A stretch of 64,000 nt of DNA. It comes from Thermoplasmatota archaeon. GTDB lineage: Archaea; Thermoplasmatota; E2; DHVEG-1. Below are positions 8,207 to 14,110 of the stretch, piece after piece. Location of the stretch: positions 261,722 through 325,721 of the forward strand of contig JAOZSQ010000001.1 of NCBI GenBank assembly GCA_029939595.1. Reading direction: 5' to 3'. Both the position numbers and the translations under genes were made by a program. The notes beneath the pieces are model-generated. The model was given only the letters and a program-made list of their open reading frames with translations. It was not told the DNA's origin and searched no databases. Position 1 is the first letter of the stretch. Every line of letters begins with the position of its first letter.

Positions 8207-9936
8207 TGGAAGAATTATCTGATTTTGTTAGAGATGCGAATGGGAAAGTGATAAGATATCATGATAACACAAATTTGCGTCCAGCGCATTGCCCACTTGA
8301 ATTATCAAAAGAGCATGTTGCTGAGTTTACAAGATGTAAAAATGATGTTTTTTATTTTGCCGAACATTATTATAAGATTGTTGAATTGGATTATGGATTG
8401 CGTAATATCCGGCTCCGAAACTATCAAAAAGAGATAATGGAAAAGATAGATGCGTTCAGATTTAACATCTTAAATATGCCTCGCCAATCAGGTAAGTCAA
8501 CCATTTTTCAAACATGGTTAACACATTATATTTTGTTTAATTCTCATAAGAGTGTGGCTATTCTTGCCAATAAACGAGACAATGCCCAGGATATGCTTAA
8601 AAAGGTTAAATTGGCTTATGAAAACTTACCCAAATGGATGCAGCAAGGTGTAACAGAATGGAATTTGGGAAGAATTGAATTGGAAAATGGAAGTATTGTT
8701 TATGCATCATCCACTGCTAGTAGTTCTATCCGATCAAAGTCTATTAATATATTGATTTTGGATGAGGTAGCGTTTATTCATGAAAATATGTGGGATGCTT
8801 TTTATAGTTCAACTTATCCTGCGATCACTGCCAGTAAGACTTCCAAGGTGATTATGGTGTCAACTCCAAATGGAATAAATCAGTTTTTTCAACTTTGGGA
8901 GAAAGCCGTTGCTTGTGAAAGCGAGTATATTCCAACCCGAATTTATTGGTGGGATACACCTGGAAGGGATGAAGATTTTAAAGAAGAGATTATTGCTAAT
9001 TTTGGTATAGAGAAATGGCGACAAGAATATGAATGTAATTTCTATACCACATCCAACACATTACTCCAACCGGACAAAATCAAAGAGTTAGCCAAGTTTG
9101 CCAAACCAGGAATTAAGTCAAAATTACATAAGGCATTTGAGAAGATTCAGAAAGGATTTGAGGAACATTTAAGAGTTTTTCAGAATCCAAAGTCACATCA
9201 TGAATACGCTATAGGAGTTGATTCAGCAAAAATGACACCTGATTCCAAAGGAGATGCTATTTGTGTTCAAGTGTTAGATGTAACGAAGTTGCCATTTAAG
9301 CAAGTTGCCACATTTTATGTTTCGGAGGGTTTTTATTATATGAATACACCTGAGTTGGTTGATATGTTGGGTAGGTTTTATAATAATGCGTTGGTATATG
9401 TTGAGAATAATGATGGGTCTGGTTCTGAGATAGCGGGAGTGTTGTTTTTGGATTATGAGTATGAAAATTTATATTTTGGGAAGTTGCATATTCCAGGTTA
9501 CAAGCAAACCAGCCAAACCAAGAAGTTAGGAATACAGAATTTAAGAACATATGTAGAGAAAAATAAGTTGCATATATATGATATTGTAACGATTAGTCAA
9601 TTTTCTTATTTTGTGAAGTATAGGGATACTTATAAGGCTCAAAAGGATTATCATGATGATGCTATCTTGGCTTTAATTCATGCTTTATACTTTTTACAAT
9701 TGAGTGAATATGTGGATAGCAAAGCCGATTTGATTGATGCTGTGATGAAGGATGATAAGTATTTGATGAATAAGAAGTTAGTTAGTACGGATGGAGCAAT
9801 GGCACCTTCTGATATGTTTGGAGGTGAGAGTGACGACAGACCAGGATTATTTGATGAGTATGATGATTATGATGTTCCTTCTGCTGGTTTTTTAGATGAT
9901 GAATTAGTAGATGATGGGGGTTGGATGACAAGATGA
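8206..9936 (+). CDS. terL: terminase large subunit (T4 gp17-like), ATPase plus nuclease
   Basis: Walker A MPRQSGKST, Walker B ILILDEVAF, and a C-terminal RNase-H-like nuclease region (GVDSAK...DAICVQVLD). 576 aa. Confidence 0.9.
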   Translation: MEELSDFVRDANGKVIRYHDNTNLRPAHCPLELSKEHVAEFTRCKNDVFYFAEHYYKIVELDYGLRNIRLRNYQKEIMEKIDAFRFNILNMPRQSGKSTIFQTWLTHYILFNSHKSVAILANKRDNAQDMLKKVKLAYENLPKWMQQGVTEWNLGRIELENGSIVYASSTASSSIRSKSINILILDEVAFIHENMWDAFYSSTYPAITASKTSKVIMVSTPNGINQFFQLWEKAVACESEYIPTRIYWWDTPGRDEDFKEEIIANFGIEKWRQEYECNFYTTSNTLLQPDKIKELAKFAKPGIKSKLHKAFEKIQKGFEEHLRVFQNPKSHHEYAIGVDSAKMTPDSKGDAICVQVLDVTKLPFKQVATFYVSEGFYYMNTPELVDMLGRFYNNALVYVENNDGSGSEIAGVLFLDYEYENLYFGKLHIPGYKQTSQTKKLGIQNLRTYVEKNKLHIYDIVTISQFSYFVKYRDTYKAQKDYHDDAILALIHALYFLQLSEYVDSKADLIDAVMKDDKYLMNKKLVSTDGAMAPSDMFGGESDDRPGLFDEYDDYDVPSAGFLDDELVDDGGWMTR

Positions 9937-10871
9937 TTAGTTTTAAACTGTTTTTAGAGAAGCGGTCCCATGCGGATCAGAACCCAAAGATATCGGTGGT
10001 TGACGCATTAGAGAAATATAAGGATGATCCTGATGTATATGTTCATTTTTCAAAAAGGGATACTATGTTGGAAATCAATCTAAAGGCAGAACAAGGGACA
10101 CCTTTAGGTATTTACGTATACCCATTAAAAGAGATTTTTGATGAATTTGTGAATATGGATAGAACTAATTTAAAGGAATTTGGTACTTCTAAACGATATG
10201 TTTGGGTGTTAAGATCAAAGAATAATAAAAAGTTTATAAAGGATCTTCATAAAGAGTATAAACAGAAAAATTTAAATAGAGATTTCAGGATATTAAAGAA
10301 GAAGTATGGTGATGAGCTTTTGAAAAAAGGAAGTAAGTTTGATATAGAAGAAGAAAAGAAAAATCTAAAAAAACATAATAGAGAAGCTGTTCCGCCTAAA
10401 TTGTTTTTTGCTTATATGTATACGATAACCAACACATTAAAAGGTGATAAATCATATCCTGCTTTGTGGAATAAAATGTTAGTAAAGGATTTGGGTTATA
10501 CTGGAATTGTGGATAAATCTGGAAAGGGTTATATTCATGAGTTTGAGAAATTGCAAGGAGTGTTTTTGACAACTAATGCTTATACTGTTTTAGATGTGGT
10601 AGAAAATAAATCATATGAGACTAGAGAAATAAAAACATTTGATGATTTGGTAAAAAATAGTGCTAATATTTCTACACCTAGATTGATAAAGAGTGCGGGT
10701 GAGAATAATGATGATTATTTTTGGGTTAATGGTTCTGAACATATTCGTGGTGAGTTGGGTTCGGGTATTTCATCTTTTAAAATTAAAAGGAAAATATTGG
10801 GCGATTTGAATACTTTAAGTGATAGGATACGTAGTAGAAGTATTGAATTAAGAAATAAAGGTAAAAAATGA
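9933..10871 (+). CDS. CTS-tagged cargo protein, 'KISVVDALEKY' family, member 1
   Basis: Real start at the ATG (MISFKLFLEKRSHADQNPKISVVDALEKYKDDPD), overlapping the terL stop as ATGA. Family motifs GIYVYPLKEI, YVWVLRSKN..FIKDLHK, WNKMLVKDLGYTGIVDKSGKGYIHE. Confidence 0.7.
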   Translation: MISFKLFLEKRSHADQNPKISVVDALEKYKDDPDVYVHFSKRDTMLEINLKAEQGTPLGIYVYPLKEIFDEFVNMDRTNLKEFGTSKRYVWVLRSKNNKKFIKDLHKEYKQKNLNRDFRILKKKYGDELLKKGSKFDIEEEKKNLKKHNREAVPPKLFFAYMYTITNTLKGDKSYPALWNKMLVKDLGYTGIVDKSGKGYIHEFEKLQGVFLTTNAYTVLDVVENKSYETREIKTFDDLVKNSANISTPRLIKSAGENNDDYFWVNGSEHIRGELGSGISSFKIKRKILGDLNTLSDRIRSRSIELRNKGKK

Positions 10872-12960: not shown

Positions 12961-14110
12961 ATTATTTTTAGAGAAGCGGTCCCATGCGGATCAGAACCCA
13001 AAGATATCGGTGGTTGAGGCATTAGAACCGTTTAAAAATAATCCTGATATTTATATCCACTATTCTAAGATCCCAAAAATAGGGATAAATCCCAAGGCAC
13101 CATCTAGTAATGATACTCCTAATGGAATTTATTGTTATCCGGTAAGAGAGTGTTGGGATATGATAGAAAATAACAAATTGGAATATGCGGGTGATTTTCC
13201 CTATGTATGGGTGTTAAAATCAAAGAATAGGAACTTCATTAAGGATTTGCATAAGGATTATAAGGAATCGGATTTGAAGAGGGATAAACGTACATTAATG
13301 ATGAGATATGGCGATGTGGTAGAAAGAAGATTTGCGTCTTGGTATCCAAGAACAACTATGGATAAAATTATTTGGAGAAAAGCTGGTGGTCCGCATCCGG
13401 CTAGAATTCTTTTTAGAACAACCGAATTGTTTGCAAAATTGATTAGTAATTCTGATACCAAATACCAACATTTATGGAATGCGTTGTTGAGAAAGGATTT
13501 AGATTATTCTGGTTTTGCTGATAAATCGGGTGAGGGTCATATTCATGAAGGTGAGAAAATACAAGCAGTATTTTTAGATACAAAAGCATATACCATAGTG
13601 GATATGTTAGAAAACAAAACATATGAAACGATAGTTCCAAAGTCGTTTGATGAATTGCAAGAGTTTATTGATGAAGGTGAACTTAATTTGAGAGATGTTT
13701 TAATAGGTTTATTACATCCTGATAAAACAGGCAGGGTTAGAATTGACAATGATTATTATGCTGCTTCTGAGGATGAGATAAAGATATATTCTATTCCAGT
13801 TAGAATGTTCCAACGTAACCCGAAGGATGTTGCTAAGTTTTTAGTAGCAAATTGGGATGAGGATAATGTGTTGTTGCCTTTATTTGGTGATAATATGATT
13901 ATTAACAAGATTAATGTTGGTGACGATTTCTATATGGATATGGTTAAAGAGAGATTTTCAACTCAAACATTGAGAGATTGGAAAAAGATATATGACAAGA
14001 ATACAACCAGAGAGGTGGCAGAGAAGATATTGGATGCTGTGTTCAAGAGCCATTGGAAGAAGGTAGATGGGCTGGTTGATAGGGTTGTTAAGTTGTTGGA
14101 GGAAGTATGA
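12947..14110 (+). CDS. CTS-tagged cargo protein, family member 4
   Basis: MIGFKLFLEKRSHADQNPKISVVEALEPFKNNPD, with the family motifs. Confidence 0.7.
   Translation: MIGFKLFLEKRSHADQNPKISVVEALEPFKNNPDIYIHYSKIPKIGINPKAPSSNDTPNGIYCYPVRECWDMIENNKLEYAGDFPYVWVLKSKNRNFIKDLHKDYKESDLKRDKRTLMMRYGDVVERRFASWYPRTTMDKIIWRKAGGPHPARILFRTTELFAKLISNSDTKYQHLWNALLRKDLDYSGFADKSGEGHIHEGEKIQAVFLDTKAYTIVDMLENKTYETIVPKSFDELQEFIDEGELNLRDVLIGLLHPDKTGRVRIDNDYYAASEDEIKIYSIPVRMFQRNPKDVAKFLVANWDEDNVLLPLFGDNMIINKINVGDDFYMDMVKERFSTQTLRDWKKIYDKNTTREVAEKILDAVFKSHWKKVDGLVDRVVKLLEEV

Follow-up and report, generated by a model that had tools for sequence, protein, structure and literature searches.

The window analysed here, a 64,000-nt stretch of contig JAOZSQ010000001.1 (assembly GCA_029939595.1; source contig of 426,929 bp), belongs to an uncultivated, distant T4-superfamily myovirus. 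Directly downstream of its gene for the T4 gp17-type large terminase (TerL) lies an array of tandem, same-strand, overlapping open reading frames (ORFs), p1–p4, which are homologous along most of their length and carry near their 5′ ends a common block of 50 nt. Their products are putative ADP-ribosyltransferase (ART)-like effectors that begin with a short tag resembling the capsid-targeting sequence (CTS) of T4 internal proteins. The genes and block copies of the array are arranged as follows.

8206..9936, + strand: T4 gp17-type large terminase (Pfam Terminase_6N/6C), 36-39 % identical to pelagiphage and cyanophage TerL
9933..10871, + strand: p1, 312 aa; CTS-like tag MISFKLFLE followed by a disordered linker and a putative ART-PolyVal-like domain
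9951..10000, + strand: block copy 1, an exact match (0 mismatches); codons 7-23 of p1, 15 nt past the TerL stop
10868..12070, + strand: p2, 400 aa; start codon overlapping the stop of p1 (ATGA)
10886..10935, + strand: block copy 2, in p2; 1 synonymous mismatch (CCA->CCG at 10921)
12067..12960, + strand: p3, 297 aa; mosaic 5′ end
12085..12134, + strand: block copy 3, in p3; 0 mismatches
12947..14110, + strand: p4, 387 aa; among the four block carriers, the one that has diverged most
12965..13014, + strand: block copy 4, in p4; 0 mismatches
14107..15258, + strand: p5, a fifth paralog of 383 aa, ~31 % identical, without the block and without the RSHADQNPKIS peptide

The identity of the block is genuine and far from random: the + strand of the window contains the 50-mer TTTTTAGAGAAGCGGTCCCATGCGGATCAGAACCCAAAGATATCGGTGGT four times, whereas 100 dinucleotide-preserving shuffles do not contain it once. 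The four near-identical blocks in tandem paralogs announced by the original prediction, which was made from the letters alone, are thus borne out, three copies being exact and one differing by the single synonymous mismatch; of the positions it gave, 9950 and 12968 were right to within 3 nt, and 10897 and 12096 were off by 11 nt. In each of p1–p4 the block translates as F-LEKRSHADQNPKISV-V at codons 7-23, that is, the end of the T4-CTS-like tag (FLE) followed by the flexible disordered linker KRSHADQNPKISVV, and it spans the longest peptide that is invariant among the four proteins (18 aa; the runner-up has 6 aa). The sequencing reads point the same way: a contig of the Logan k-mer assembly of run SRR21545386 (L017), which carries TerL, stops at window position 9980, 30 nt into copy 1, where the first 31-mer common to all block copies starts, and a break at this place is expected of a true repeat in the reads.

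Outside the block the paralogs have diverged extensively. Their pairwise protein identity is 34-58 %, which confirms the divergence claimed for the downstream coding sequence and widens its predicted range of 40-50 %. Identity falls away within one to three codons on either side. Upstream, codons 3-6 vary among the paralogs both synonymously and non-synonymously (AGT/GGG, TTT/TTC, AAA/AGA, CTG/TTA); from codon 23 onward, conserved residues are written with differing synonymous codons (GTT/GTA, GCA/GCG, TTA/TTG, etc.), and synonymous sites in the flanks are saturated with divergence. The flanks are therefore not equally identical, as the original prediction acknowledged they should be if the genes had been duplicated very recently, and the prediction survives this check. 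Suppression of synonymous change within the block, a count the prediction had likewise proposed, is evident at columns where all four paralogs share the same degenerate amino acid: 15/16 such columns are codon-identical in the block vs 23/57 outside (Fisher P = 1e-4), and the latter are confined to two-fold codons that end in A/T and are strongly preferred. If codons were drawn independently four times from the usage of the window, agreement at all 16 would have P ~1e-14.

The block is also unusual in composition. Its GC content of ~0.50 vs 0.327 for the window agrees with the earlier statement that it is markedly more GC-rich than its surroundings, and places it within the top 0.3 % of window 40-mers; the same level is reached at ~27 further places in the window. 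The GC content at third codon positions (GC3) is 0.62 vs 0.24 for window genes (P = 4e-4 given the peptide and window codon usage), or 0.59-0.65 per copy vs 0.17-0.31 for the remainder of each gene, and the rare codons CGG, TCC, GCG, TCG, and GTG are used. A direct repeat with 10-nt spacing, GCGGTCC/GCGGATC, lies inside the block. In 11 homologous genes from 8 other loci, the corresponding 17-codon segment shows GC3 values of 0.00-0.41, which exceed the gene background in a single case. A family-wide cause of the high GC3 was rejected on these grounds and, because the homologous segments elsewhere are AT-rich, the GC-rich encoding is derived and private to this genome.

Signs of short-tract gene conversion are found elsewhere in the array. 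Along p1–p4 the identity is patchy and the patterns of informative sites conflict. Three pairwise tracts stand out.

10467..10515, + strand, partner 12595-12643: exact 49-nt patch shared by p1 and p3; GC 0.31; permutation P<0.0005
10017..10052, + strand, partner 12151-12186: exact 36-nt run shared by p1 and p3, just downstream of the block
10860..10947, + strand, partner 12059-12146: 88-nt tract shared by p2 and p3 with 1 mismatch, starting in the final codons of the preceding gene and extending over the ATG, tag, and block as far as +80

The 49-nt patch was assessed with 2000 column permutations, in which the longest run was 36. At its 5′ end p3 is mosaic, being identical to p2 over -8 to +80 but for one mismatch and to p1 over +85 to +120; the switch from p2-like to p1-like sequence, at +81 to +85, lies ~15 nt beyond the block. 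That the p2/p3 tract crosses a gene boundary points to homogenisation of the DNA and not of the protein. A comparable pattern is present in an unrelated phage (L002), whose two diverged paralogs share a 45-nt patch of 100 % identity at codons 106-120 and use the same codon at 11/12 positions within codons 1-15.

Taken together, the block is probably a concerted-evolution island, kept uniform by short-tract gene conversion among four tandem genes for ART-PolyVal-like effectors. Of the two causes first offered for it, gene conversion is supported by the 49- and 36-nt patches and the p3 mosaic, while an RNA or DNA element received no positive support. T4-type recombination requires less than 50 bp of homology, and short conserved motifs mediate the shuffling of hyperplastic regions (PMC2839356, PMC4122927). 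In the mechanism proposed here, recombination-dependent replication of the T4 type would repeatedly form heteroduplexes between the copies, for which ~50 bp of homology would be enough. A heteroduplex would form only in the longest identical stretch, and conversion would be confined to the block because the flanks are too diverged for the tract to extend. Conversion in the block would then keep erasing or spreading new mutations while the flanks drift, so that the island would maintain itself. Such self-maintenance is plausible given that p1–p4 have no longer invariant peptide than the one covered by the block, and it would account for the near-coincident tract ends in all copies. A probable helper is selection for a single N-terminal targeting or propeptide sequence that fits a shared partner, such as the scaffold core or the prohead protease. 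As a by-product, four in-frame direct repeats of 50 nt would let whole genes duplicate, delete, or swap with their reading frames intact.

Several observations weigh against conversion as the full explanation. By itself it leaves both the GC3 of 0.62 vs 0.24 and the rare codons unexplained. The remaining conversion patches have a low GC of 0.28-0.31 and each joins just two paralogs; thus, there is no general signature of GC-biased conversion, and such a bias found no support as a cause. The homologous segment reaches a GC3 of only 0.00-0.41 in the 11 genes of other genomes. All four copies end within ~4 nt of each other, which needs either confinement by divergence or selection on a defined segment. 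Finally, co-resident paralogs in two related loci (L014 and L015) are recent duplicates that nonetheless differ synonymously inside the equivalent segment, so a 5′ island is not universal in the family. Searches for a close relative that would permit ortholog comparison returned none in phages (megablast, tblastn), IMG/VR, JGI metagenomes, GTDB genomes, or the protein database: the nearest relatives have TerL proteins at most 40 % identical and array-family proteins at most 48 % identical, and GTDB genomes hold one distant locus. The GC-rich composition itself may stem from (i) import from a GC-richer relative followed by a sweep, (ii) long-term biased repair at a conversion hotspot, or (iii) a nucleotide-level function.

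The last of these options leads to a different reading, rather doubtful on balance, in which the block is a coding-embedded nucleotide-level element under purifying selection, either an mRNA operator or pairing target or a DNA site for a nuclease, recombinase, or TerS-type protein. The GC-rich, rare-codon composition that is private to this genome and lies in the top 0.3 % of 40-mers, the same block ends in all four copies, and the GCGGTCC/GCGGATC direct repeat at 10-nt spacing would all suit such an element, and T4 offers a precedent in its pac/gene-19 homology (PMC10893049), the array here adjoining gene 17. Folded on both strands, the block scored z = +0.7 to +1.4 alone and -0.1 to +1.4 together with its flanks, and the minimum free energy structure differs per copy. 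The block is therefore less structured than its shuffles, as expected of an accessible pairing or binding site; the folding check suggested with the original prediction turned up neither a better-than-shuffled fold nor one common to the copies. Rfam has no match at the gathering threshold in the whole window, nor at E<=1 in 9800-13200, no tRNA or tmRNA relation of the block was found, and a promoter and terminator scan detected nothing over it. In all 64 kb, the gene for a small terminase-like protein (terS-like) included, no partial, diverged, or complementary copy exceeds chance (blastn-short, RNAduplex scan, and local alignment, the last scoring as the shuffled-block controls do). The block core is absent from IMG/VR and GTDB genomes, and its one 22-mer in a JGI metagenome lies in an unrelated GC-rich bacterial contig and is a chance match, so that no sign of conservation extends beyond this genome; where the homologous segment occurs elsewhere, it is AT-rich and synonymously variable. 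Conversion, on the other hand, is demonstrably active in the array and enough for the identity itself. It is likewise unlikely that the block is a selected GC-rich module behind the tag, serving as a dedicated recombination or synapsis site through which injected-effector cassettes beside the terminase gene would expand, contract, or be exchanged, like a coding version of the promoter-early stem-loop motifs or of the T4 pac/gene-19 homology, or as an operator or pairing target that co-regulates the four genes. If a selected nucleotide site of this sort were real, it would add to phage hyperplastic regions a novel kind of recombination or regulatory module that is embedded in coding sequence.

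Import followed by a sweep is a special case of conversion that also covers the foreign-looking codons, and it is improbable: a variant of the RSHAD... peptide would have entered from a GC-richer co-infecting phage and then spread by selected conversion to the three other copies, for example because it matched a changed scaffold or protease or escaped a host sensor. Foreign-like codon usage is confined to the block, a single substitution in 200 nt over the copies suggests recency, related peptides (KRSHPD, ARSHPE) occur in other family members, and the family is present in phages of 29-41 % GC. Known relatives, however, are insufficiently GC-rich for a GC3 of 0.6, an import of 50 nt is very short, no donor encoding HADQNPKI exists in IMG/VR (four pattern matches all lie outside ORFs), and in the protein search the leader turned up nowhere else. 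An artefact of assembly, in which bubble-popping or consensus polishing merged near-identical metagenomic repeats, has to be considered for a 426,929-bp contig without a cultured isolate, given that assemblers can homogenise repeats of low divergence. It is very improbable, since one copy keeps a variant base, all copies keep the reading frame, the tract ends differ from pair to pair, and the Logan k-mer assembly (SRR21545386) contains the p1-specific left flank and breaks at the first all-copy 31-mer; it would moreover require copies that were already nearly identical. Dual coding, by which a second frame or an antisense ORF would constrain all three codon positions, can be given hardly any weight. 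Two alternative frames are open over the block, and a +1-frame ATG starts an ORF of 10-13 aa (MRIRTQRYRW...) in all four copies, but no alternative frame has both a shared start and an extension past the block, the antisense ORF is found in p3 only, the one substitution changes the mini-ORF peptide (Q->R), and the potential slippery heptamer is not canonical (A/G UUU UUA, not U UUU UUA). An overlapping ORF or frameshift site was rejected on these counts. The residue of a very recent tandem duplication is the least credible account of all: the genes are indeed tandem, equally oriented, and overlapping, and recent duplicates of the family exist in other phages (91 % identical in L014, ~90 % in L015), yet here the proteins are 34-58 % identical, outside synonymous sites are saturated, and identity drops one to three codons from the block. 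The unequal flanks refute it.

The protein family of the array is widespread in uncultivated phages (53 matches, the best outside this genome at 48 % identity), with members in phages of 29-41 % GC. Its N-terminal conserved region reads Mxx(F)Kx(F)(L/I)xE-ARRNPEQNPKIS-AYEAL-PYKDDPDIYISFT, its invariant residues are Y36, P57, G59, Y61, I201, E205, Q208, and F211, and its C-termini are variable, featuring WxxGxW repeats as well as ankyrin, pentapeptide, and Lcl-C-like repeats or domains. The paralogs conform to the ART fold, with putative ART-PolyVal-like domains. Unlike the ART-PolyVal domains of phage polyvalent proteins and the packaged ADP-ribosyltransferase Alt of T4, they have no match in Pfam or PHROG sequence searches, nor in a PDB sequence search. 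The AlphaFold model of p1, built from a 31-sequence alignment, is confident (predicted local distance difference test score, pLDDT, 85), with residues 1-12 disordered and 11-20 of low confidence; the block is thus predicted to encode a flexible extension outside the folded domain. The paralogs may be ART-like effectors that are packaged into the head and injected, with a function similar to that of T4 Alt and the internal proteins of T4. In L015 (7997-11598), an ENA scaffold of a 167 kb phage, three paralogs form a related array, of which one is without the RRNPxxNPKIS segment and another is broken by an N-gap. This array is followed by a tagged gene containing 'KQVGVLYHFT' that is homologous to window genes 16948 and 17439, so the neighbourhood is partly conserved between distant phages.

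The tag extends well beyond the array. At least 22 other window genes fit M-x-x-F-K-x-F-L-x-E and, together with p1–p4, ~26-30 genes are tagged. The starts of tagged genes (window 3-47 kb) include the following.

In the array: 9933, 10868, 12067, 12947
Elsewhere: 6863, 15255, 16353, 16948, 17439, 22290, 22655, 23110, 23919, 24662, 26259
Elsewhere, continued: 27095, 27658, 30852, 31355, 33398, 34477, 34892, 35709, 37047, 37723, 46191

The pattern M-[IRK]-[SF]-F-K-Q-F-L-x-E, ~10 aa long, is close to T4 MKTYQEFIAE (aromatic at 4 and 7, L/I at 8, E at 10), which was confirmed as the N-terminus of T4 IPII. In the T4 CTS, targeting depends on residues 4 and 7, and processing on residues 8 and 10 (PMC9026906). 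The tag of p1–p4 possesses F4, F7, and L8, with the glutamate at position 9 (MISFKLFLE-K). It is one residue short, ending in FLE and not FLxE, which makes propeptide cleavage at the tag uncertain. Homologs in other phages have canonical tags, e.g., MKRFKEFIAE. Across the 22 other tagged genes the tag codons vary synonymously; hence, the island is not a property of the tag, and the tag itself was rejected as the homogenised unit. Only 23919 and 24662 share a run of 31 nt there. These adjacent genes (248 and 361 aa) carry the exact run ATGATTAGTTTCAAAGGATTTCTAAATGAA over the start codon and tag (23919-23949 and 24662-24692), a second island of the T4 ipII/ipIII kind.

Some tagged genes have recognisable products. 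The tag is found on an ATP-dependent DNA ligase (23110-23922; Pfam DNA_ligase_A_M and OB_2) and on a nucleotidyltransferase of the PolyA_pol/CCA-adding family with an HD domain (27658-29073). This would mean either that repair enzymes are packaged in the head and injected or that the tag does something other than target proteins to the capsid. Following the array, the tagged gene 15255-16337 (phrog_11974) has homologs of 35-40 % identity in 51 Vibrio phage records, including KVP40-like phages; one of the Vibrio phage records annotates its homolog as a PARP catalytic domain protein, and the KVP40 homolog (KVP40.0290, L022 5983-7101) starts with the likewise CTS-like MKNLKSFMEE. YHGT/YHFT motifs in tagged genes 16948, 17439, and 27095 suggest more ART-like effectors. 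If the tag is a CTS, the phage packages an unusually large set of proteins, a prospect that may outrank the block in interest, and the ~30 tagged genes of the window constitute a testable catalogue of candidate head-packaged proteins.

The array sits within the conserved 16-17-18 module, in which the ~31 kb between TerL and the sheath gene are mostly occupied by orphan genes and form a hyperplastic region. Other features of the module are listed below.

4555-5121: gp16-type small terminase (terS-like), weak match
5114-5536: free-standing GIY-YIG (LEM-3-like) endonuclease, between the terS-like gene and tagged leucine-rich repeat (LRR)-like genes
41590-43848: gp18-type sheath

The GIY-YIG gene likely encodes a homing endonuclease, which could promote local gene conversion. 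The two tagged LRR-like paralogs, 5595-6866 and 6863-8206, lie between the terS-like gene and TerL (region 5523-8206) and contain repeats of 20-21 aa, F-x-C-x-x-N-x-L-T-S-L-E-G, in tandem units of 60 and 63 nt at 6284-6798 and 7681-8098. Over the first 300 nt (5524-5823 vs 6864-7163) the two reach 90 % identity, which represents another 5′-biased identity tract. No prohead protease gene was found within the 64-kb window; in the related locus L014, a Peptidase_S77 prohead protease is located 2.9 kb downstream of the paralog array. Between the sheath gene and the next structural genes, 43985-44932 encodes a 315-aa protein that matches Jiv90 weakly and contains internally repeated C-x-x-C motifs (a 68-nt repeat at 44270 and 44474); it may be an inserted zinc-finger or homing-type gene. 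Short palindromes are avoided in the window (TCGA 0 observed/88 expected, CGCG 0/18, GGCC 12/46), with GATC and CATG near their expected counts; the deficit probably reflects restriction-site avoidance. The GC skew is strong and uniform (G>C, ~0.3-0.4), and nearly all genes are on the + strand.

Short-tract gene conversion in tandem paralogs is characterised by identity islands, suppressed synonymous divergence, mosaics, and tracts of tens of nucleotides that are limited by the divergence of their flanks. The array conforms to this picture in all but composition: unlike in usual concerted evolution, the island has a strong GC3 excess that the other conversion patches of the array lack.

Two further T4-related systems bear partial resemblance to the block. 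The promoter-early stem-loop (PeSL) motifs of T4-like hyperplastic regions are intergenic and combine a sigma-70 promoter with a G/C stem-loop (Arbiol et al. 2010, PMC2839356; Comeau et al. 2014, PMC4122927). Like PeSLs, the block is a short nucleotide-conserved repeat near gene boundaries of a hyperplastic region, offering patches of homology for the insertion, deletion, or exchange of whole genes. Unlike them, it is coding, without a promoter match or a stable hairpin; promoter-like sites in the region are no commoner than in shuffles, and its identification as a PeSL was discarded. In T4, gene 16 contains at its 3′ end a GC-rich pac sequence to which TerS binds and which recombines with a short homology in gene 19, thereby amplifying genes 17-18 (Wu, Wu & Black 1991, reviewed in PMC10893049). 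There, too, a short GC-rich sequence lies by the terminase genes and short direct homologies yield tandem amplification. The copies described here, in contrast, are spaced 0.9-1.2 kb apart inside paralogous genes, and no related sequence exists in the terS-like gene or elsewhere in the window. This absence from the terS-like gene speaks against a T4-pac-like homology, the best local alignment of the block to 4555-5121 scoring 19, below the shuffled-block maxima of 24-29.

The closest parallel is provided by the internal-protein genes of T4 itself. T4 ipIII and ipII share an exact 48-nt island, ATTTAAAGGAAACATATGAAAACATATCAAGAATTTATTGCCGAAGC, over the Shine-Dalgarno (SD) sequence, ATG, and CTS (codons 1-11), located at 1787-1834 and 2484-2531 of L023 (T4 AF158101.6). 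BLASTP of the two proteins detects no similarity past residue 13, and a partly conserved promoter-like sequence upstream of the island is also shared. With a 48-nt island in otherwise unrelated proteins, the analogy to T-even internal proteins drawn in the original prediction is well founded. In both cases, (i) the genes are tandem, same-strand genes of a T4-type phage with putatively head-packaged products, (ii) a perfectly identical 5′ island of ~50 nt (48 in T4, 50 here) precedes a diverged remainder, and (iii) the N-terminal peptide follows the same design (MKTYQEFIAE in T4 vs the window tag MISFKQFLxE). The differences are equally distinct. Whereas the T4 island is AT-rich and comprises the SD, ATG, and codons 1-11, that of the window is GC-rich with rare codons and comprises codons 7-23, so that the ATG and the initial six codons of the tag lie outside it; the tag of p1–p4 is one residue short of that of T4 (FLE vs FLxE); and the four window genes are homologous throughout, not unrelated cassettes. 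The island marks the N-terminal 23 residues, tag plus linker, as a functional module. If conversion is indeed its cause, as seems probable, the concerted evolution of a capsid-targeting leader known from T4 ipII/ipIII extends to a very distant, uncultivated phage of the T4 superfamily, where it would act on a four-gene array of putative injected ADP-ribosyltransferase-like effectors.

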